Shown here: one piece after another, positions 4,672 to 63,929 of the stretch | Layout: each line of letters begins with the position of its first letter | How positions within the stretch are numbered: position 1 is the first letter of the stretch | Source of the DNA: an uncultured Oscillospiraceae bacterium | GTDB lineage: Bacteria > Bacillota > Clostridia > Oscillospirales > Ruminococcaceae | Assembly: GCA_934513685.1 (NCBI GenBank) | Contig: CAKSWY010000002.1 | Location: 57,946-121,945 of the forward strand | Reading direction: 5' to 3' | DNA length: 64,000 nt | Program-made: the position numbers and the translations under genes | The notes under the pieces: generated by a model | The model's input: the letters and a program-made list of their open reading frames with translations, nothing else | Database searches by the model: none | What the model was told of the DNA's origin: nothing

Positions 4672-5472
4672 ATGGAATTTCTCACCTTGAACACCGGCGC
4701 ACAGCTGCCTATGATCGGCTTCGGCACCTGGGACGTGCGCGGCGAAGAAGGCAAGCGCAGCATTCTGGGCGCGCTGGAGCTGGGCTACCGCCTGGTCGAT
4801 ACGGCCCTGATGTACAAAAACCACGCCATTGTCGGGGCTGCCCTGCAGGAAAGCGGCCTGCCCCGCAGCGAATTGTTCCTCACCACCAAACTGAACCGCC
4901 CCTGCAGCAGCTATCCGGCCGCAAAGGCGGGCATTGAACAGTGCCTGAACGAGCTGCAGACGGACTATCTGGATCTGCTTCTGATCCACGAACCATACGA
5001 AAATGCCCTTGCCATGTACCAGGCCATGACCGAGGCCGTCCGCTCCGGCAAGGTCCGTGCCATCGGCATTTCCAACTTCAGCCCGACGGAGTATGAGGAG
5101 TTTCTCACCCAGTGCGGCGTGGTGCCCGCGGTGAACCAGATCGAATCCCACGTGTACCATCCTCAGCTGCACTTCCGGCAGCTGCTGAACGAATACGGCA
5201 CGCAGATGCAGTCCTGGGCGCCCTTCACCGAGGGCCGCAAGCCCATCTTTTCCGAGCCGGTTCTGTGCGCCATCGGGGCCGCCCACGGCAAAAGCGCCGC
5301 ACAGGTGGCCCTGCGCTATCTGACGCAGAACGGCATTGCCGTCATTCCCAAATCCGTTCATCGGGAGCGGATGGCGCAAAATCTGGACCTCTTCGACTTT
5401 ACGCTCACGCCGGAGGAGCTGGCCCGCATTCGGCAGCTGGATCAGGGTACTTCCCTGTTCGGCTGGTATTGA
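4672..5472 (+). CDS. Aldo/keto reductase family oxidoreductase
   Basis: 266 aa from ATG 4672 (RBS AGGAGGAAAGGAG). GFGTW...DTA..Y.NH, IGISNF and LLIHEP motifs of the AKR superfamily. Confidence 0.85.
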   Translation: MEFLTLNTGAQLPMIGFGTWDVRGEEGKRSILGALELGYRLVDTALMYKNHAIVGAALQESGLPRSELFLTTKLNRPCSSYPAAKAGIEQCLNELQTDYLDLLLIHEPYENALAMYQAMTEAVRSGKVRAIGISNFSPTEYEEFLTQCGVVPAVNQIESHVYHPQLHFRQLLNEYGTQMQSWAPFTEGRKPIFSEPVLCAIGAAHGKSAAQVALRYLTQNGIAVIPKSVHRERMAQNLDLFDFTLTPEELARIRQLDQGTSLFGWY

Positions 5473-5538
5473 CCCATAGAATGGGCCTGCCCGTCCGATT
5501 TTGAGGGCTGATTTTGAGAAAAGGGGGTGTGAACCGCC

Positions 5539-6403
5539 GTGGAACTCCGCGTTCTGAATTATTTTCTGGCCATCGCCCGGGAAGAAAACTTCACCCGGGC
5601 CGCCCAGCAGCTGCACGTGACGCAGCCCACCCTCTCCCGCCAGATCGCCGATCTGGAGCAGGAGCTGGCGTGAAGCTGTTTCGCCGCAGCAATCACAACA
5701 TCGTTCTCACCGAGGATGGCATGATTCTCAAGCGCCGAGCAAGGCGCTTCTCGCCCTTGCGGATAAAACCAAACGGGACTTTCTGCACCGAGGCGAACAG
5801 CTGGAGGGCACCATCGCCATCGGCAGCGGAGAGTTTCTGGCCACCCGCTGCCTGACCGACTGCATTGCGGCCTTTCACCGGATGCACCCGCTGGTGCGCT
5901 ACGAACTGGTCAGCGGCAACGCGCTCAATCTGCTGGACCTTGCGCTGCTTGCCGAACCCATTGACATCCGCAAATACGACTTTGTGCCCACGCCGGTTTT
6001 GGAAGAATGAGGCGCGCTGGTGCAGGAGGACTCGGAACTGGCCCAAAAGGCCGGCCTTGCCCCGCAGGATCTGGTCGGCATTCCCCTGATCTCCTGCCTG
6101 AGCGACCCCGCCCAGGAGCGGCTGCAAGCCTGGTTCGGCCCTTACGCCGGGCAGCTTGACGTTCTTGCCCGTGGAAGCCTGATGTACAATGAAGCGCTTC
6201 TCGCGCAAAGCAACATTGGGGCGGTGATCGGTATTCGGCTGGCCTGCCAGTACACCGGCCTTCGGTTCGTCCCCTTTTCCCCGCCGCTGCAAAACTGCAC
6301 CGCGCTGATCTGGAAAAAGGAACAGGTGTTCTCCACCGCCACCTCGGCCTTTCTGGAGTTCGCCAAGGAATACCTTTTGGGCATTTCTCGCGATAATAGA
6401 TAA
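5539..6403 (+). pseudogene. LysR-family transcriptional regulator, disrupted by at least three frameshifts
   Basis: HTH ([44 protein letters not shown]) ends in TGA at ~5670. The reading continues in other frames ([24 protein letters not shown]..., then LADKTKRDFLHRGEQLEGTIAIGSGEFLATRC..., then 6020-6403 MQEDSELAQKAGLAPQDLVGIPLIS...) as LysR substrate-binding domain pieces. Confidence 0.75.
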
Positions 6404-6531
6404 GCATTGGGCATTGCTCGGCCCGAATTCTATAATAAAGGTGTTCAAAGCAGGGAGCCATTCCGCTTTGGGCACCTGATTTTTGTTTTGGGCACCGCGA
6501 ACGGTTCCGGTGCCTCGGAAAGGGCGTTGGT

Positions 6532-6888
6532 ATGACCATTCAGGAAGCAAGCGAGTGCTACCGCATTCCCCTGCACATTCTGCAGGAATATGAACGCTGG
6601 GGGCTTTGCCGCGCAGTAAAGGACGTGATGGGGACCTGGCAGTATGACCAGACCGACATTGAACGCCTGAGCCTGATTTTGACGCTGCACGACGTTGGGT
6701 TTAGCCCGGAAGAGGTGGAGCATTCTATGCGTCTGCTTCGGGTGGGGGATTCCACCAAAGAAGAGCGCGCCCGTATGCTGAATGAGCGCCGGGACGGCAC
6801 GCTGGATGAGATCCACCTGCGCCAGCAGCAGCTAGGCCGCCTGGACTATCTGCGCTACGAGCTTGCCCAGGGTCACCCGGGGCGCTGA
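6532..6888 (+). CDS. MerR-family transcriptional regulator (small, HTH only)
   Basis: 118 aa; N-terminal MerR-type HTH (TIQEASECYRIPLHILQEYERWGL...DQTDIERLSLILTLHDVGFSPEEVE). Confidence 0.55.
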   Translation: MTIQEASECYRIPLHILQEYERWGLCRAVKDVMGTWQYDQTDIERLSLILTLHDVGFSPEEVEHSMRLLRVGDSTKEERARMLNERRDGTLDEIHLRQQQLGRLDYLRYELAQGHPGR

Positions 6889-6948
6889 CTTTGCGAAACG
6901 TATCTCCGCCCGGTTCCGTTTTTCCCTGCAAAGAAAGTGAGGATGCTT

Positions 6949-7821
6949 ATGAAAAAGAAACTTGCACTTTCTTCTGGCCGCCTGTCTGGCCCTTGCGGTG
7001 GTCGGGTGCGGAAGCACTGCCGTCTCCAGCAGCGCCGCAACCCCTGCCTTCTCCGAAACGGCCGACTCTCAGACGCAGCCCACCCCCACCGCAGATCCGG
7101 AGGCCACCCCGGAAGCCACACCGGAGGCCGAAGCTTCCAGCCGGATTCTGGTGGCCTATTTCTCCTGCACCGGGCACACCCAGGCCGTTGCCGAGCAGAT
7201 CGCCCAGCAAACCGAAGCAGACCTGTATGAAATCACCCCGGCTGATCCTTACACCGTCGAGGATCTGAATTACAACGACAACAATTGCCGCGCCAATCAG
7301 GAAATGAACGACCTGGCGGCACGGTGCCATGGCTGGGCACAGTTTCAGGCCATGGAAAACCACTACAACCTGCTCTACCGGGAAGACGAGCGGGAGCTGA
7401 TTCCCATCTGCAAACAAATGGGTGTGTCACTCATGCCGTACAGCCCCCTGGCCGCCGGGCACCTCACCCGCCCGGAGTGGACCACCGACACCCTGCGCAG
7501 CCGGACCGACCGGGTCGCCATGGGCAAATACGACCGCACCAAAGAGCAGGATCTGGAGATCGTGCACCGGGTGCACACGCTGGCCGAGCGCTACGTCGTA
7601 AAGATGCAGCAAATCGCATTGGCCTGGCATTGGGCCAAGGGCGTTGCGCCCCCCATCATCGGGGCCACCAAGGCCGCCCATTTTGACGATGCTGCGGCCG
7701 CGCTCAATGTTCGGCGGAGGATGTGGCCTATCTGGAACAGCCGTATCTGCCCCACCCGATCGTGGGCGCCATCAACCAGAACCCGGCAGAGGGCGTTATT
7801 CTGCTGGACGAAAAGAAATGA
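6949..7821 (+). pseudogene. Chimeric pseudogene: frameshifted lipoprotein-flavodoxin N-terminus fused to the C-terminal half of an aldo/keto reductase (also frameshifted)
   Basis: MKKKLAL... at 6949 (RBS GTGAGGA) shifts frame into a lipobox LAAC LALAVVGCGS. A flavodoxin-like segment follows (ILVAYFSCTGHTQAVAEQIAQQ...DLNYNDNNCRANQEMND), then directly an AKR C-terminal region (YNLLYREDERELIPICKQMGVSLMPYSPLAAGHLTRP...IALAWHWAKGVAPPIIGATKAAHFDDAAAALNV). A final frameshift precedes the terminal ...ILLDEKK*. Confidence 0.65.
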
Positions 7822-7848
7822 GCCCCCTGCATTCCGCAATACAAAGCA

Positions 7849-7905
7849 AAAAAACACCGTGGTACATCGGCCGGTTGAACCGGCTTTTGTGCCACGGTGT
7901 TTTTC
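7849..7905. terminator. Bidirectional terminator hairpin (between pseudogene region and the cytidylate kinase-like gene)
   Basis: aaaaacaccgtgg ... ccacggtgttttt long stem containing an inner ccggttgaaccgg hairpin, with A-run and T-run flanks. Confidence 0.6.
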
Positions 7906-7914
7906 AGGTTCGGT

Positions 7915-8529
7915 TTACTTTTCCAGCGCTGCCAGATAGTCCAGCACGGCCTGGGTCACGACCTTGATGTTCTGCCCGGAGGTATTCACCATCAGGTCGT
8001 AATTTTCCCGCGCGCCCCACTTGCGGTCGCTGTAAAACTCATAGTACTTGGCGCGGCCCTTATCAATGCTGGCCATGCGCTTCTTCATCTCCTGCTCGGT
8101 CAGGTGTTCATCCTCGGCCTTACGCTTCATGCAGCGGTCCAGCTTGCTGGCCACATCCGCATACACGAAGATGCGGAACGGCTTTTCATCCCGCAGAATG
8201 TAATCGGCACAGCGGCCAACGATGATGCAGTCCGACTTTGCCGCCATCTCCTGAAGCAGTTTGTGCTGCTCGGCATACACATTCATGCTCTGCTGGAACA
8301 TGGGGTTCGTCACCGGATAAAAGCTGTGCCCGACATGAATGGGGAACGAAGTGATGGGCTTGCGCTCAATGATCTGCTGCACATACTCCTCCGAAAGGGC
8401 CGTGCGCTTGGCGATTTCGGTGATGATCTCCTGATCGTAATAGGCATAGCCCAGCTTTTCCGAAAGGCGGCGCCCTAGCTCACGCCCGCCGCTGCCAAAC
8501 TCTCGTCCAATGGTAATGATTTTGCTCAT
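7915..8529 (-). CDS. Cytidylate kinase-like family protein (P-loop)
   Basis: 204 aa; IITIGREFGSGGRELGRRLSEKLGYAYYD N-terminus typical of the cytidylate-kinase-like family; RBS GGAAAGGAG. Confidence 0.7.
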   Translation of the reverse strand: MSKIITIGREFGSGGRELGRRLSEKLGYAYYDQEIITEIAKRTALSEEYVQQIIERKPITSFPIHVGHSFYPVTNPMFQQSMNVYAEQHKLLQEMAAKSDCIIVGRCADYILRDEKPFRIFVYADVASKLDRCMKRKAEDEHLTEQEMKKRMASIDKGRAKYYEFYSDRKWGARENYDLMVNTSGQNIKVVTQAVLDYLAALEK

Positions 8530-8625: not shown

Positions 8626-9600
8626 TCATTCCAATCGCTGCTCAAATTTCTGATAGGCCGCAAAGCGCTCGCCGATCAAATCCATCAGATAGCGCTTGTA
8701 CGGTGCTAGGGCGCTTTCCTTGTGCCAGATCAGCGCCAGGGTGCTGTTCTGCAGCCGGCCTTCAAAATCAATGGGATAGATGTGCAGACGGTTTTCCTGC
8801 CGCTGCCGTTTGTTGTTGTTCAAGGTGGTTCCGCAGATCTGGTGCGGAATGATACACCCGGCCATATCCGTCCGGGCCAGCGCATCCAGAACCTCCGTTC
8901 GGTTCGAAGCAAACACAGTGTGGAATTCCCGCCCCGTCTGTGCCGTGTACTCATCCATTACGCTGCGCAGGCGGCTGCCGACCGGATACGTTACAATCGG
9001 GACCTGCGCCAGCTGCTCCAGCGTAATGCCGTTTTGCTTATAATGGAAATCTGCCTCCCGTGCCCGGCTGCCAAGGCAGGCCTGCAGCAATCGGTCCGAA
9101 AGGATAAACAGATAGGTATCCTGCAAAAGCACCGAGGCATTCAGCTGCGGCCGGGGGCTGTACTGGGTCACAATGGCCATATCCAGAATACCCCGCTCCA
9201 CCTGATTTTGCAAGAGATTGGAGTAATCATACGCAACCTCCAGCTCCACGTGGGGGTATTTCTTCTTAAACGGCGGCACAATGCGGGGAACGATCTCCGT
9301 ATAGCGGGCCGAGGGCACCCCAAGCGTCACGCGGCCTTTGGCATCCGGCCCGCTGCCGTCCAGTTCGGCGGCAATCCCGTTCTCCAACGCCCGGATCTTT
9401 TTCAGGGTCTCCAGCAGCGCCTGCCCCTCTGCCGTGAGGGCAAAGCGCGGGCGATGCTCCACCAGCTTTACACCGTATTCCTCTTCCAAGCTGCGCACAT
9501 GGGCGCTGACGCACTGGTAAGAAACAAACAACTGCTGTGCCGCCCCGGAAAGGCTTCCGGCCTCGGCAACAGCCAGAAAGGTGGTAAAGCGCTGGTTCAT
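8626..9600 (-). CDS. LysR-family transcriptional regulator (divergent from ilvD)
   Basis: ATG at 9600 preceded by GAGGGGGAGGG; HTH MNQRFTTFLAVAEAGSLSGAAQQLFVSYQCVSAHVRSLEEEYGVKLVEH, then a LysR substrate-binding domain. Confidence 0.85.
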   Translation of the reverse strand: MNQRFTTFLAVAEAGSLSGAAQQLFVSYQCVSAHVRSLEEEYGVKLVEHRPRFALTAEGQALLETLKKIRALENGIAAELDGSGPDAKGRVTLGVPSARYTEIVPRIVPPFKKKYPHVELEVAYDYSNLLQNQVERGILDMAIVTQYSPRPQLNASVLLQDTYLFILSDRLLQACLGSRAREADFHYKQNGITLEQLAQVPIVTYPVGSRLRSVMDEYTAQTGREFHTVFASNRTEVLDALARTDMAGCIIPHQICGTTLNNNKRQRQENRLHIYPIDFEGRLQNSTLALIWHKESALAPYKRYLMDLIGERFAAYQKFEQRLE

Positions 9601-9790
9601 TTCGCCCTCCCCCTCTCTTTTCTCTATCATGCCGCTTTTTGCACAAAATGTCAAGGGAATTTCCGGCCCGTTTTCAACAGTTCTAACAAGAACCTTCCGG
9701 CCGGTTCTCGATTTTCTTCTCTTTAAACCGTGCTTTTTGTCAAGGTATCGCCGCTGTTTTCCCGCCGGATTTAAGGGCGTGCAGCCCCTT

Positions 9791-14894: not shown

Positions 14895-15659
14895 TCATTG
14901 CTCCATGCACACCGCCAGATGCCCAAGGCCCTCCTCGCTGGTCACCGCAAGCTGCTGCACAAAGCCATGCCGTTCCGGCGCAAGATAGCGGCACACCGCC
15001 TTCGAGTGGGGGCAGCGCCCGGCGGTCATCTGCTGCAAAAGCAGCGCCAGCTTCGCCTCCTGCTGTGCCGGGGTGGTGGTCGTTCTCCAAACCGCCAGGC
15101 ACGCCGCGCTTGGGGCAGTTCGGTCTCCCAGAATCTCCTGCCGCAGTGCCGTGACCATCACGCAGCGCAGCAGCACCCCGCTCAGATTGTAAAACTGCCG
15201 CCGGTAATCCGGGTCAAATCGAAGCAGGGTGCGCACTGCCAGAGACTCCGGGAACAACTGCAGAAACTCCTGCGCCAGTTCTTCCAGCCGTTCAAAATCG
15301 CCGCCGCATATCCCCTCAAAGCGGGTGCTCAAGGATTCCAGAATTTGCTCATCCGTCACCCGTTCACCGGCCTGAGCGCGGCAGTGATAAAACAGCGCAG
15401 CCAGCCGCTCCAGGCTTTCCGCGTAGGTCTGCCGGTCCAGATAGGCACTTTGCTCAAACCGCTTTGCCAGCTGCGGCAGAATTCCCTCGCCCCATTCCGC
15501 AAGGCCCTCCCGGTGCAGGGCCTCCCGCCGGGTTTCCAGCAGCTGAAGGGCCTGCGCCCCGGTCAGCGTCAGATCCGCTTCCTCTTCCGGCTGTGCCAGA
15601 AGCTCGTTCAGGCATTGCTGCTCATTCGCCTGCATCATCCATTCGTTTATCCCGTTCAT
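14895..15659 (-). CDS. Hypothetical protein (helical, acidic; no recognised domain)
   Basis: 254 aa; good RBS GGCGGAGGTG upstream of ATG 15659; no overlap with other genes. Confidence 0.5.
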   Translation of the reverse strand: MNGINEWMMQANEQQCLNELLAQPEEEADLTLTGAQALQLLETRREALHREGLAEWGEGILPQLAKRFEQSAYLDRQTYAESLERLAALFYHCRAQAGERVTDEQILESLSTRFEGICGGDFERLEELAQEFLQLFPESLAVRTLLRFDPDYRRQFYNLSGVLLRCVMVTALRQEILGDRTAPSAACLAVWRTTTTPAQQEAKLALLLQQMTAGRCPHSKAVCRYLAPERHGFVQQLAVTSEEGLGHLAVCMEQ

Positions 15660-60169: not shown

Positions 60170-60563
60170 ATACTGTGTGTTGTATCCGGATTCCGCAGCT
60201 TCTTGTGAAAGCCTCGTGTCCGGATTTCTTTATGTCAAAACTCTCGCCGCCGGATGCATATTGTCGGATATACGATGCAACTTTTCAAAATTTGCTGCAA
60301 TTGGAGGAATTGACGCGAAACAGCAAAAGCCGCGGTGTCTGCACACCGCGGCTTTTCTGCTTTATTTTATAGGACATATGGTACGATAGGCACGCACAGG
60401 GAAGGCTTTGCTGCATTGGCATTCCCCTCGAGAGGATTTGATTGGTGTTATCGCATTAATTGTTTACGTAATTACTTGCGGAAGCTTGAACGGCGGCCGA
60501 AATGGCAGCATATTAGATTCACATACGATATACTTTCTTTCCTTTGGAGCGTTCAACCTCCAA
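60170..60563. promoter_or_regulatory. AT-rich intergenic region between the Ubl operon and the CRISPR array (Ubl-operon promoter region / CRISPR trailer)
   Basis: ~400 bp, distinctly AT-richer than its surroundings. Four direct CCGGAT/TCGGAT repeats (60185, 60220, 60250, 60275) and a perfect 14-bp hairpin aaaagccgcggtgt-ctgc-acaccgcggctttt at 60325-60356. Confidence 0.45.
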
Positions 60564-62056
60564 GAGTCACCCCTGCGTATACGGGGGAAAAGCCAGCGCC
60601 ATCTGCAACTTCGCAATGGCCGTAGGATCACCCCCGCGCATGCGGGGAAAAGTCTCCGATAAAAACGGTGTTTCCGCCGGACGGGGGATCACCCCCGCGC
60701 ATGCGGGGAAAAGCTTTGACCCAAAGTTGGCCCGGTTGTGTCCTACGGGATCACCCCCGCGCATGCGGGGAAAAGGCCTGAACGACCGAGAAAATGCCCG
60801 CGATGGTGGGATCACCCCCGCGCATGCGGGGAGAAGAGTTTTTAAACGATGCACCGTCAGTCCATGTGGGGATCACCCCCGCGCATGCGGGGAGAAGTGT
60901 GAAAATCGGCCCGGACACCTACCGCAAAAAGGATCACCCCCGCGCATGCGGGGAGAAGTTGGCTTTTTACAATCCGTGTTATAGGGCTTTAGGATCACCC
61001 CCGCGCATGCGGGGAAAAGGGTAAAAGGTGCCGTCGCCGGGCACCAGCCAGGGGATCACCCCTGCGTATGCGGGGAAAAGCAGGCAAGGCCGGGGCCGAC
61101 GGTCACGGTCATGGGATCACCCCCGCGCATGCGGGGAAAAGTACCGATTTCGGCGGCACACGCCAATGTACTCAGGATCACCCCCGCGCATGCGGGGAAA
61201 AGTTTGTCGGCAGCTGCGTAAAGAATTCAACCACGGGATCACCCCCGCGCATGCGGGGAAAAGTGCAGCGCCGACTAAAAAATATAGGCAATGCCAGGAT
61301 CACCCCCGCGCATGCGGGGAAAAGAACATTTTTGCACATAACAGCGTACTTAAATTGGGATCACCCCCGCGCATGCGGGGAAAAGTTGTGCATAATTGTC
61401 CATATGCAGCACATCACAGGATCACCCCCGCGCATGCGGGGAAAAGAAACAGTCCTCAAAACCGACGACCCATCGGTTAGGATCACCCCCGCGCATGCGG
61501 GGAAAAGCAGCGTCCACAGCCCTGCAACAATCATACATAAGGATCACCCCCGCGCATGCGGGGAAAAGGAAATTTGTGCTTGATGGGATGCAAGCGGCGG
61601 GGGATCACCCCCGCGCATGCGGGGAAAAGAACTCGCCCGTCTCCATGTTCTCGACGCCCACAGGATCACCCCCGCGCATGCGGGGAAAAGTGAGTTATAA
61701 TAAAGACGATGAAAGGAGTGATAGGATCACCCCCGCGCATGCGGGGAAAAGACATTGTGAGGTGCGTATGAATTTTTTGAAGTGGGATCACCCCCGCGCA
61801 TGCGGGGAAAAGCATTTTTTGAGAAGGGGGGTGAATTTGTGAGCGGGATCACCCCCGCGCATGCGGGGAAAAGACACTCCCTGACGCAATCAACAACGGC
61901 GTCGAGGGATCACCCCCGCGCATGCGGGGAAAAGCCGGCGCATCTTCCACCCCCGAGGCCCGGAGCGGGATCACCCCCGCGCATGCGGGGAAAAGAAGGC
62001 TGCGATCGTATGTTTGGCCCGTGAGACGGGATCACCCCCGCGCATGCGGGGAAAAG
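60564..62056 (-). CRISPR. CRISPR array, type I-E-like: 25 repeats of 28 nt (GGATCACCCCCGCGCATGCGGGGAAAAG on + strand), 24 spacers of 32-34 nt
   Basis: 61-62 nt periodicity; the repeat has an internal CCCCGC-GCAT-GCGGGG hairpin. The repeat at 60564 is degenerate (gagtcacccctgcgtatacgggggaaaag); variants occur at 61053 and at 60809/60870/60931 (GAGAAG). Orientation is assigned tentatively from the degenerate terminal repeat and the co-oriented cas genes. Confidence 0.9.
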
Positions 62057-62073
62057 ACTAAAAAGATCCCGTA

Positions 62074-62967
62074 TCACCGACTGTATCCGTTGCGTTCCGC
62101 TCCATTTTCGTTTAGTTTCGCATAAACTTTCTGCGTCAAACGGCAGTCGGGCACCGCCCGGTGCTCTACCTTGTCTGCCAGCGCAAAATGCTGCGCCAGT
62201 GCAAGCAGTTTATAACTGGACAGGCCCAGTATTTTTCGCCGTGCAAGAGGAAGGAGATCGATTTTCCGGTTGGCCAAAACCGGTTTCATGTTCCGAATGC
62301 AGGCCATACGCAGAAATTCCAAATCAAATTGCAGGTTGTGTCCCACCAAAGTATCTTTGCCTACAAAGCGCAGGAACGCCTCCAGCGCATCCGCGGCGTC
62401 CATACCGCCTTCCAGTTCTTCCTGTGTGATGCCCGTCAGGCGGGCAATTTCTGCGGGCAACGGCGTTTCCAGCCGCACCAGCGCCGAAAACTCCTCTCCT
62501 GGCTGCCCATCCCGGACCCGGACCGCGCCATACTCCACGATTGCATCCGTTGCCGCATGCAGTCCTGTTGTTTCAAGGTCGATCACGGTATAATCCTGCT
62601 TTCCGGGCGGTCGGGCAGCTCTTTGCGCCATTTTCTGTGCCATCTGATACTTTGCCGCCTTGCTGAATCCCGGTTTCAGCTCCAACGCCTCGACCTGGGG
62701 TTGCGCTTGCGGAAGCGGACGGCGCATCAGCTTAATGCCGTCGTAATCCACCACTTCCCAGTTAGTATTATGGGTGCGGAATTCCATCTTCTGCTCGCCG
62801 GCCGCTGTATAGACCATCGTCGCCTGTCCATTTTTCAGGTACTGGCAGACCCGATCCCAGACCGCATCCCGCACGCGGCTGCTCACGTTCCCCACGTAGA
62901 CGCCGGTGTTGATCTCACACAGCCATTTGGACAGATCTCCCCGCAGGCGCGGCGGGCAGCTGGTCAT
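62074..62967 (-). CDS. cas2: CRISPR-associated Cas2 fused to DnaQ-like 3'-5' exonuclease (type I-E Cas2-DnaQ)
   Basis: N-terminus PPRLRGDLSKWLCEINTGVYVGNVSSRVRD matches E. coli Cas2 [26 protein letters not shown]. C-terminal DEDDh exonuclease motifs (VIDLETTGL, GHNLQFDLEFL, YSR). The true start is probably upstream at a non-ATG codon (~62982), restoring the IVVLT beta-strand. Confidence 0.85.
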   Translation of the reverse strand: MTSCPPRLRGDLSKWLCEINTGVYVGNVSSRVRDAVWDRVCQYLKNGQATMVYTAAGEQKMEFRTHNTNWEVVDYDGIKLMRRPLPQAQPQVEALELKPGFSKAAKYQMAQKMAQRAARPPGKQDYTVIDLETTGLHAATDAIVEYGAVRVRDGQPGEEFSALVRLETPLPAEIARLTGITQEELEGGMDAADALEAFLRFVGKDTLVGHNLQFDLEFLRMACIRNMKPVLANRKIDLLPLARRKILGLSSYKLLALAQHFALADKVEHRAVPDCRLTQKVYAKLNENGAERNGYSR

Positions 62968-62975
62968 CGTCAGAA

Positions 62976-63929
62976 CTACAATGGCTCCTCACCCTCTTCC
63001 CAGGCAGCATAGTTGATGCCGTTGGACACCGTGCCGAGGTTGTTGTCCCAAAGATACACGGCATCCGGTTCTTCCATCTGTTCTCCGTCGCTCAGCAGCA
63101 GCCAGCGAATGTCATGCACCATCCGTTCCAGAATATGGTGCTCCACCATGGCATCCCGCACACGGCGGCGCACAACGGCAGGCAGGTCTTCCGGTGCCTG
63201 CGTTGCAACCTCAAATGCGATGGGAATGGTCACCTCGGCCTTATACAGGTCTGCAATGTCGTACACAAAAGAACACTCATGGCCGACATGCACAAACCCC
63301 AGCCCTGGTGCGCAGCCCAACGCGACAATGACCGCATGCGCCAGCCCATACAGGCACGCATGCCCGGCCGACAGCGCCTGATTGACCAGGTCTCCTAACG
63401 CAAAATCCTCCGGGCGGTACAGCCGTCCACTCCATGGCACGCCGGTTTCTTTGGACGCCTTGCGGTAGACGTTCCTCACACGGCTGCCCTCCCGGCCGCG
63501 TAGCTGCTGCATCGTAAGGTTGGAAACATCTTCTTCAGGGAAACGCAGCTGATACATCTTACGCACCACGTCCAAATGCTTCCGTTGGTTGCTGACAAGT
63601 TCTGCCTGCCGAATCAGCATCCTGGAATGGGTGGTCAGCGGGCGTCCGTGGGCGTAGTAGCGCACGCCGTGCTCTCCCACCCAGACAGCTCCCACGCCGG
63701 TATCGCCCATCAGCTCCATAGCGCGATGGGTCACGCGGGTGCCAGGCCCAAGCAGCAGCACCGAGATGCCCGCCGCCGGGATCTGGACGACGCCTTTTTC
63801 GTCCGTCACGGTAATGGCACCGTCCTGCCGCCCCAGCGTACAGTGTTCCAGATACAGAAACGTCATCCGGTCTTTTACCTGTGGCAGTGCCTGCAAATCA
63901 GGCCGGATCATGCCCGGAAGTTCATCCAT
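62976..63929 (-). CDS. cas1: CRISPR-associated endonuclease Cas1, type I-E
   Basis: 317 aa; closely alignable to E. coli Cas1/YgbT (GTRVTHRAM, VWVGEHGVRYYA, DVVRKMYQLRF, LRGREGSRVR, GFVHVGHECSFVYDIADLYK); RBS GGAGGAA. Confidence 0.92.
   Translation of the reverse strand: MDELPGMIRPDLQALPQVKDRMTFLYLEHCTLGRQDGAITVTDEKGVVQIPAAGISVLLLGPGTRVTHRAMELMGDTGVGAVWVGEHGVRYYAHGRPLTTHSRMLIRQAELVSNQRKHLDVVRKMYQLRFPEEDVSNLTMQQLRGREGSRVRNVYRKASKETGVPWSGRLYRPEDFALGDLVNQALSAGHACLYGLAHAVIVALGCAPGLGFVHVGHECSFVYDIADLYKAEVTIPIAFEVATQAPEDLPAVVRRRVRDAMVEHHILERMVHDIRWLLLSDGEQMEEPDAVYLWDNNLGTVSNGINYAAWEEGEEPL

Follow-up and report, generated by a model that had tools for sequence, protein, structure and literature searches.

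A probable pseudogene patch left by a 2.1-kb deletion in a LysR-MerR-flavodoxin-aldo/keto reductase cluster of an uncultured gut Oscillospiraceae bacterium

Are the broken genes at positions 5539 to 7821 of the DNA shown above genuinely decayed, or are they products of faulty sequencing and assembly? The stretch analyzed (the window; 64,000 nucleotides of contig CAKSWY010000002.1, assembly GCA_934513685.1) comes from an uncultured gut Oscillospiraceae bacterium. In the region in question it carries the pieces of a LysR-family regulator, a small open reading frame (ORF) for a MerR-family regulator, and an ORF in which a lipoprotein flavodoxin is joined to the C-terminal half of an aldo/keto reductase (AKR). 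The original prediction favored gene decay, with homopolymer indel errors as the alternative, and decay as the preferred reading was borne out when the region was aligned to intact orthologous loci. Here, we regard it as very likely that the region is a real pseudogene patch, in which a putative redox/electrophile-stress cluster was wrecked by a 2.1-kb deletion and the remnants are now decaying.

Intact loci were found by a protein search with the chimeric ORF, followed by retrieval of the contigs encoding full-length AKR matches. The undeleted locus is present in contigs L063-65, L073/74, and L075 (the last is CDRQKV010000005.1 of NCBI assembly GCA_977036215.1), at 93 to 97.5% nucleotide identity to the window. 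There the gene order is AKR266, LysR296, MerR118, lipoprotein flavodoxin201, flavodoxin156, CMD231, and AKR334, each named with its length in amino acids (aa). Synteny is the same as in the window, with RecR, DUF6311, a pseudouridine synthase, and AKR266 on one side and a cytidylate-kinase-like gene, LysR324, IlvD, an acyltransferase, and MgtE on the other. In the intact loci, the lipoprotein flavodoxin is 201 to 223 aa long and has a signal peptide, and Pfam recognizes a complete Flavodoxin_4 domain in both flavodoxins of L063. Alignment to intact orthologues, which had been proposed as a check, fixed the exact positions of the indels. It was carried out at base level against L063 and L059 (SFJO01000018.1, a sister species with 91% nucleotide identity to the window) and extended to L070, L001, L069, L071/72, L073, and L075. 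Domains were assigned with Pfam profiles for the window ORFs and with Pfam and NCBIfam for the L063 orthologues, whose family assignments were confirmed in this way. The features are listed in Table 1.

Table 1. Features of the decayed region and its immediate surroundings (window coordinates).
Feature	Position	Strand	Evidence
Intact aldo/keto reductase, 266 aa, DkgA-like; undecayed upstream neighbor	4672..5472	+	Pfam Aldo_ket_red 1.3e-42
LysR-family regulator pseudogene (intact orthologue 296 aa)	5539..6403	+	HTH_1 and LysR_substrate matches on separate fragments
14-nt direct repeat GACGCAGCCCACCC, copy 1	5619..5632	+	2 exact copies; 0.01 expected by chance
LysR lesion 1: 1-bp deletion, GGG>GG; frameshift, stop at 5671-5673	5667..5668	+	Alignment to L059, L063
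LysR lesion 2: 1-bp deletion (C), GCACAGG>GCAAGG; frameshift, outside homopolymer	5741..5742	+	Alignment to L059, L063
LysR lesion 3: surviving direct-repeat copy CTGCTGGACC, marking a 24-bp in-frame deletion	5930..5939	+	Comparison with L070
LysR lesion 4: TGG>TGA nonsense codon, in frame	6008..6010	+	TGG in L001, L059, L063, and all others compared
Promoter-like site TGGGCA-17-TATAAT upstream of MerR (putative function)	6408..6436	+	Consensus scan, 10/12 matches
MerR-family regulator ORF, 118 aa, open	6532..6888	+	Pfam MerR_1 1.2e-13
Chimeric pseudogene, lipoprotein flavodoxin N-half and AKR C-half, from native flavodoxin ATG to native AKR stop	6949..7821	+	Pfam; alignment to L063
+1 T (TT>TTT) in signal-peptide coding region	6968..6970	+	Alignment to intact alleles
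14-nt direct repeat GACGCAGCCCACCC, copy 2, in flavodoxin linker	7072..7085	+	2 exact copies; 0.01 expected by chance
Junction of 2,115-bp (705-codon) in-frame deletion, 12-nt imperfect microhomology	7313..7324	+	CTGGCGGCACGG against CCGGCGGCCCGG
7-bp deletion (CGGCTGA, between CGG repeats); frameshifts last ~38 codons of AKR remnant	7712..7714	+	Alignment to L063
Inverted repeat between convergent AKR remnant and cytidylate-kinase-like gene	7850..7904	.	Hairpin seen in sequence

The chimera arose at a single junction. Positions 7387-9501 of L063 are missing from the window; the BLAST high-scoring pairs end at L063 7386, resume at 9490, and overlap by 12 nt in the window. At the breakpoints, L063 has CCGGCGGCCCGG in the flavodoxin gene (encoding PAAR) and CTGGCGGCACGG in the AKR gene (encoding LAAR). 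The deletion joins codon ~103 of flavodoxin201 to codon 164 of AKR334 and removes flavodoxin201 from about residue 104, all of flavodoxin156, all of CMD231, and residues 1-163 of AKR334. The original prediction had recognized the in-frame fusion, and to the two gene halves must be added two whole genes that were lost with them. In the ORF at 6962-7936 (325 aa), positions 1-78 of the 155 in Flavodoxin_4 (PF12682, E value 4.6e-20) are followed by positions 149-276 of the 291 in Aldo_ket_red (PF00248, E value 1.2e-19); neither domain is complete, with 78 and 128 profile positions, respectively. Because the catalytic Asp/Tyr/Lys/His of the AKR are located in the deleted N-terminal part, they are lost from the chimera.

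Two small lesions, both of them anticipated from the sequence, lie on either side of this junction. The extra T in the signal peptide separates the ATG at 6949 (MKKKLAL...) from the remainder, LLAACLALAVVGCGS, which stands in the frame of a TTG at 6962; the undisrupted form, MKKKLALLLAACLALAVVGCGS, is found in proteins P0005 and P0122. An extra A in the AAAAAG run was also considered for this frameshift and was rejected on the alignment to intact alleles. Since the +T also occurs in L075, where the operon is otherwise intact, it may by itself merely shift the start to TTG 6962. Near the end of the AKR remnant, the 7-bp deletion moves the native AKR end into the frame of 7723-7821, and the uninterrupted reading ...LNVRLTAEDVAYLEQ... 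is preserved in P0002-P0004 and P0010-P0017. Other variants of the remnant (P0005-P0008) add at least four frameshift sites, and at least five independent sites are found across strains besides the 7-bp deletion of the window. By comparison, the Pro/Thr/Glu/Ala-rich linker after the lipobox (7015-7119) varies among strains by 12, 24, and 42 bp in frame (ATPEATPEA-type repeats), and the +42- and +24-bp differences seen there are length variation in many strains and not lesions. The exact 325-aa chimera is encoded on six contigs, one of them an NCBI record, and the 90% cluster to which it belongs contains 201 distinct members. Within the top 120 homologues of the chimera search, the Flavodoxin_4 plus AKR architecture was confined to the cluster at ≥94% identity; the remaining matches were AKR only, mostly 334 aa, the closest being 95 to 99% identical to the AKR half.

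The LysR gene is damaged more heavily. Each of its segments is still recognizable, as the original prediction had stated, with HTH_1 at 5539-5670 (4.4e-17) and the two halves of LysR_substrate at 5693-6007 and 6020-6400. Full-length 296-aa orthologues with both domains are present in L059, L063-65, and L073-75, while no single polypeptide of about 300 aa with both domains can be read in the window; fragments of 44, ~25, ~88, and 127 aa lie in three frames with one in-frame stop. At least three breaks had been placed near 5670, 5760, and 6010, and three breaks were indeed found. The second is at 5741/2, and the third is a nonsense codon, not a frameshift, because ORFs 5882-6010 and 6020-6403 occupy one shared frame. 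The 24-bp deletion had been overlooked. It lies at about 5922-5939 and costs eight codons, LLDQIERG. In L070, the undeleted allele reads ...GCGCTCAAT[CTGCTGGACCAGATCGAGCGCGGG]CTGCTGGACC..., and the window has the same sequence minus one repeat unit and the spacer. A single complex event that combined the 24-bp gap with four adjacent substitutions was ruled out, as L070 shows that "GCTC" is a pre-existing polymorphism and that the loss was a clean repeat-mediated one. The clustering of the differences between the window and L001 within 90 bp probably reflects a short recombination tract.

Between these two wrecks stands the MerR gene, which had been described as the only ORF to look intact. Its 118-aa frame is indeed open, with a MerR_1 match over residues 1-67 and a weak MerR-DNA-bind match (19.8 bits versus a cut-off of 25.4). 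Its substitutions look neutral, and the window has R9C, Y65S, and L70R at positions conserved in 53, 53, and 48 of 54 homologues, respectively. In addition, the gene has been destroyed independently in L070 (22-bp deletion and +1 T), in L075 (+1 G frameshift), and in L059 (840-bp deletion). By a rough estimate, an open frame is what would be expected for 357 bp at the lesion density of LysR and the chimera. MerR is therefore not counted as preserved; it is probably under relaxed constraint and drifting, and nonfunctional or dispensable.

Counts of derived changes were compared between strains with and without the fusion. For each gene, the synonymous and nonsynonymous changes found only in fusion strains were set against those in intact strains (Fisher test), with three intact-operon lineages (L073/74, L063-65, and L075) and five fusion lineages (L069, L070, L071/72, L001, and the window). 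All three of the former have an intact LysR, and all five of the latter have a damaged one. Derived changes in this gene were 5 synonymous and 17 nonsynonymous in fusion strains versus 28 and 13 in intact strains (P = 0.0012), which points to relaxed selective constraint. For MerR, the counts were 2 and 8 versus 14 and 9 (P = 0.057). End-fragments of LysR, 73 aa long, were found on more than 60 contigs in the database.

The lesions recur in other assemblies. Compared over 2.6 and 1.9 kb, the Logan assemblies L002 and L003 (ERR7738592 and ERR7738572) show 100% identity to the window. L001/L004, a SPAdes contig by its NODE naming (ENA ERZ4567471) from another sample, is 99.8% identical over 12.3 kb, and all its differences fall within LysR at 5922-6010: the 24-bp deletion and its polymorphic patch, a single synonymous substitution, and the nonsense codon TGA. 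Of the seven window lesions it carries five: the 2,115-bp junction, the 7-bp deletion, the +T, and both frameshifts in LysR. In the alignment with L063, which spans about 17 kb, indels that break a reading frame inside a gene are confined to LysR, flavodoxin201, and AKR334, the sole exception being a 44-bp difference in a DUF6323 gene. This agrees with the earlier description of a localized patch of decay in otherwise maintained synteny. A survey of ORFs in the remaining window based on GC content at third codon positions, which is heuristic only, showed no other obviously broken genes. The upstream AKR266 is 266 aa long in every related contig and has no indels relative to L063, and the downstream cytidylate-kinase-like gene (7915-8529, minus strand) is normal in appearance. 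Homology to functional families, disruption of the frames relative to orthologues at the same locus, and reproduction of the lesions in independent assemblies together argue for pseudogenes.

Different strains hold different, partly nested sets of these lesions. L069, L070, L071/72, L001, and the window all have the same fusion junction, and because every fusion-bearing contig shares it, the 2,115-bp deletion is taken as a single event. L069 has LysR frameshift 1 only, an open MerR, no +T, and an AKR remnant without an extra lesion. L070 has only a stop-loss in LysR (TAA>CAA), the destroyed MerR, no +T, and a 1-bp deletion (C) in the AKR remnant. L071/72 combine LysR frameshift 1 with the stop-loss and have an open MerR, the +T, and no extra lesion in the AKR remnant. 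L001 has LysR frameshifts 1 and 2, an open MerR, the +T, and the 7-bp deletion in the AKR, and the window, L002, and L003 have the same set plus the 24-bp deletion and the TGA codon in LysR. L003 starts downstream of both LysR frameshifts and L002 stops before the site of the 7-bp deletion. Viewed by lesion, frameshift 1 is common to L069, L071/72, L001, and the window and absent from L070 and all intact-operon strains; frameshift 2 is restricted to L001, L002, and the window (L003 does not extend to 5741); and the 24-bp deletion is restricted to the window, L002, and L003. A further state is represented by protein P0124 (315 aa, on four contigs), in which LysR residues 1-31 run directly into the flavodoxin linker, exactly as would result if another 1,453 bp were deleted between the two copies of the 14-nt repeat. 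Little of LysR remains in the P0124 strains, and both MerR and the flavodoxin signal peptide are gone.

Short homologies are found at each of these deletions: CCGGCGGCCCGG and CTGGCGGCACGG for the 2,115-bp deletion, the two copies of CTGCTGGACC in L070 for the 24-bp deletion, CGG...CGG for the 7-bp deletion, and the 14-nt pair for the P0124 deletion. The history would then run as follows. An ancestral seven-gene cluster, still retained in sister strains, would have suffered one replication- or repair-associated deletion between short similar sequences that both encode (P/L)-A-A-R, and the join would be in frame by chance. With the enzymes lost, the remnants would have come under relaxed selection and gained small lesions stepwise. 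LysR would have acquired two 1-bp deletions and then the repeat-mediated 24-bp deletion and the nonsense codon; the chimera would have acquired the +1 T and the 7-bp deletion near its end. MerR, its frame still open, would be gathering nonsynonymous changes at conserved positions. In other strains, the 1,453-bp deletion would have removed most of LysR, all of MerR, and the signal peptide.

Several observations weigh against this account. The lesions do not follow a strict tree: the undeleted L075 has the +T as well, and the LysR stop-loss is shared by L070 and L071 and not by L069. The synonymous divergence (dS) between the window and L063 is a mosaic, at 0.13 to 0.22 in LysR, MerR, and the N-half of the flavodoxin (5539-7324) versus 0.03 to 0.04 in the flanks. 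Many strains keep a clean chimeric ORF of 288 to 292 aa, and the synonymous and nonsynonymous counts of the chimera (9 and 6 in fusion strains versus 34 and 13 in intact strains; P = 0.52) do not separate the two groups, so that sequence by itself falls short of proving the fusion product useless. The lineages are metagenome contigs, not isolates. Finally, the physiological role of the cluster is drawn from weak family matches, all below the NCBIfam cut-offs.

The first two of these points bear on the order of events. A dS of 0.13 to 0.22 is also found in the second LysR gene (324 aa, 8626-9654), and it is 0.01 in the AKR remnant and the kinase-like gene. Because the lesions are imperfectly nested and the dS is mosaic, we infer recombination among strains; the mosaic indicates tracts of homologous recombination, and the non-tree-like lesions involve recombination or recurrent mutation. 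L075, at 97.4% identity to the window, combines the full operon and an undamaged LysR with the MerR frameshift (L075 3592-3949); there the +T would be recurrent, recombined, or tolerated through the TTG 6962 start. An order with the fusion first is the most parsimonious one, though it is not proven.

Concerning the role of the cluster, none of the specific NCBIfam equivalog cut-offs was reached by the L063 orthologues. The best matches were a YdjG-like methylglyoxal reductase for AKR334 (157 bits versus a cut-off of 550), CidR for LysR (134 bits versus 415), and NmlR (NF041849) for MerR, which at 53.6 bits versus a cut-off of 175 falls outside that family. From these sub-cut-off matches, a role in carbonyl, electrophile, or redox stress may be suggested. 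LysR and MerR would have controlled the lost enzyme genes. In at least 40 of 58 MerR-homologue loci (Oscillospiraceae and Lachnospiraceae), the gene directly upstream is LysR, with a constant spacing of ~980 bp, and Flavodoxin_4 lipoproteins and AKRs usually follow downstream; the module is widespread. When species-representative genomes were scanned with the MerR protein, the only matches were homologues of at most 67% identity plus the sister species L059, and the window's own species was not among them. A literature search found nothing relevant to a LysR-MerR-flavodoxin-CMD-AKR cluster. A LysR-MerR-flavodoxin-AKR module with 67 to 75% nucleotide identity to the window was also seen in L056 (CAVGBV010000016.1), a contig labeled Alloprevotella sp. 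(Bacteroidota), which suggests bin contamination or horizontal transfer.

The cluster has been hit more than once, which raises the question of whether its loss is favored. In the sister species L059, where LysR is intact, 840 bp have been lost in frame at a CGCCTG microhomology, so that MerR codon 47 now runs into the last ~15 codons of flavodoxin201 (L059 8100-8273, equivalent to window ~6670; the contig ends 130 bp beyond). Together with the 2,115-bp deletion and the MerR frameshift of L075, this gives at least three independent events, and one may tentatively picture the cluster as a hotspot of convergent, possibly selected loss, with the strain series as a natural time course in which both regulators begin to decay only once the enzymes have disappeared. 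If that doubtful picture were true, a LysR-MerR pair conserved in more than 40 Oscillospiraceae and Lachnospiraceae loci would be functionally linked to the operon. The stronger proposal, that the loss is adaptive and repeatedly selected in the gut niche instead of passive decay after a chance deletion, is improbable in our judgment. It could draw on the 2,115-bp deletion in the window lineage, the separate deletion in the sister species, the MerR frameshift in an otherwise intact operon, and a LysR-AKR fusion in the unrelated contig L076. However, any dispensable accessory cluster exposed to deletion bias should show such a pattern, several of the sampled lineages still have intact alleles, and L076 represents a different locus in a mobile-element context. 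The repeated hits fit dispensability under deletion bias, which is the preferred reading, and selection for loss alike. In L076 itself (6001-7446; Logan ERR13990710), the fusion protein P0029 (481 aa) joins LysR residues 1-166 to AKR residues 13-334, the AKR part being 89% identical, and its locus adjoins integrase, relaxase, and excisionase-like genes. This resembles one more collapse, by deletion, of a related cluster that is apparently carried on a mobilizable element.

It is very improbable that the products still function, with the chimera as a new lipoprotein, the split LysR acting as separate HTH and effector-domain peptides or rescued by programmed frameshifting, and a fully functional MerR regulating something else. 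The in-frame nature of the deletion, the clean chimeric ORF kept by many strains with its unremarkable substitution counts, and the open MerR frame in most fusion strains would fit such a reading. Against it, each fold is halved in the chimera, the AKR part is without its N-terminal catalytic region, and the AKR remnant is frameshifted at at least five independent sites across strains plus the 7-bp site of the window. LysR combines a nonsense codon and an eight-codon deletion with strain-specific sets of lesions and a 17-to-5 excess of nonsynonymous derived changes, and three near-invariant residues of MerR (R9, Y65, and L70) have been replaced. In the P0124 strains, moreover, most of LysR and the whole of MerR have been deleted.

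That the genes are intact in the organism, with the breaks due to homopolymer indel errors or to collapse during assembly, is hardly credible. Two of the seven lesions do lie in very short runs (GGG>GG at 5667/8 and TT>TTT at 6968-70), these being only 2 or 3 bases long. The source assembly is apparently metagenome derived, and coverage is low for some of the supporting contigs (~5.7x for NODE_642). The error alternative was rejected because the lesions recur in other assemblies and their types do not fit homopolymer miscalls. The same lesions are found across different samples and assemblers, in at least three other short-read assemblies; the assemblers were told apart by contig names, SPAdes-style NODE for ERZ4567471 and MEGAHIT-style k141 for other fusion contigs, and contig naming also places the Hadza/Nepal study among the samples. 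Miscalled homopolymers would not give a 2,115-bp deletion with one conserved junction, losses of 24 and 7 bp, a substitution creating a stop codon, or a 1-bp deletion outside any run, and, the DUF6323 gene aside, the rest of the ~17 kb compared is without frame-disrupting indels in genes. Random error would not yield the differing, partly nested subsets of lesions that the strains hold. Phase variation, in which LysR and the flavodoxin lipoprotein would be switched on and off reversibly by slipped-strand changes in short runs, is scarcely worth entertaining: LysR lesion 1 (G3>G2) and the +T (T2>T3) are run-length changes and the +T appears in otherwise non-nested lineages (L075 versus the fusion strains), possibly by recurrent slippage, but runs of 2 to 3 bases are far shorter than known contingency tracts and co-occur with irreversible lesions (2,115-bp, 24-bp, 7-bp, nonsense, and non-run 1-bp).

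The pseudogene patch can be set beside known cases of genome decay. Pseudogene formation and deletional erosion are known from the host-restricted Mycobacterium leprae and Salmonella Typhi and from the deletional bias model of bacterial genome evolution. As in these organisms, recognizable genes carry small indels, nonsense codons, and short-repeat deletions and are removed stepwise, and the extent of decay varies from strain to strain. Unlike there, the decay is a single localized patch in a syntenic region of a free-living gut commensal with no genome-wide reduction, and intact and decayed alleles coexist within about 93 to 97.5% identity. The retention of one repeat copy at 7313-7324 (12 nt), 5930-5939 (the 10-nt repeat), and 7712-7714 (CGG) resembles deletion between short direct repeats by replication slippage or illegitimate recombination. 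The 12-nt homology differs from a perfect repeat, matching at 10 of 12 positions in the one intact reference compared.

Both regulators likewise have familiar relatives. MerR regulators of the NmlR/AdhR type respond to carbonyl and electrophile stress and are accompanied by adjacent reductases, as in NmlR-AdhC and the AdhR-AdhA pair of Bacillus subtilis. The MerR gene described here similarly encodes a 118-aa MerR_1 regulator upstream of, and co-directional with, oxidoreductase genes (flavodoxins, CMD/AhpD-like, and AKR). It differs in its score far below the NmlR cut-off and in its neighbors, which include no AdhC or AdhA. The intact LysR orthologues are LysR-type transcriptional regulators of ~296 aa with HTH_1 and LysR_substrate domains; the window gene departs from the type in being broken four times and in lying co-directional with its neighbors instead of divergent from a target.

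Some noncoding features were examined as well. The -10 hexamer of the promoter-like site upstream of MerR is conserved in all strains and L059. A MerR-type promoter was considered at this site and rejected because its spacer is 17-18 nt rather than 19-20 nt. Between this site and the MerR start, at 6467-6496, the direct repeat TTTGGGCACC occurs twice, 20 bp apart, followed by GGTGCC. This leader repeat is conserved in L059 and all strains, has no Rfam match, and may serve as a binding site for a regulator or form a structure in the leader. The inverted repeat downstream of the AKR remnant is probably a bidirectional terminator. A simple terminator scan detected nothing, this hairpin included, and Rfam matches of the hairpin to microRNAs were at chance level only. 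Otherwise, Rfam searches of the whole window (gathering threshold) and of 5300-8100 (E ≤ 1) gave two tRNAs elsewhere; no RNA family was recognized in the decayed region.

Two other parts of the window deserve mention. In the DUF6323 gene (window 14,895-15,659, minus strand; L063 17,227-17,748), the 44-bp indel is accompanied by an unaligned stretch of ~155 bp, and the ORF is 254 aa long in the window versus 173 aa as called in L063; L063 may hold the damaged copy. At 60,540-62,080 (plus strand) and 62,074-63,929 (minus strand), the ORF translations repeat GSPPRMRGK, ITPAHAGK, and DHPRACGEK, one repeat read in three frames. We take the array near 60,540-63,929 to be a CRISPR array resembling type I-E. 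Beside it lie a 297-aa ORF, the N-terminus of which presumably resembles type I-E Cas2 joined to a DnaQ-like exonuclease half, and a 317-aa ORF, probably Cas1.

The main practical use lies in annotation: the four fragments of genes at 5539-7821 need to be labeled pseudogenes and not "fixed" as sequencing errors. In addition, the 325-aa ORF should not be spread as a new Flavodoxin_4 plus AKR domain architecture; public collections already contain it as a cluster of 201 members. The patch is a well-documented instance of a well-known process and will not surprise specialists. Within one species it shows cleanly how an uncultured gut Clostridia lineage loses an accessory cluster: a microhomology deletion would be followed by neutral erosion of the regulators left orphaned, and then by more deletions between repeats. 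It also provides circumstantial evidence that would tie the conserved LysR-MerR pair to the downstream flavodoxin, CMD, and AKR genes.

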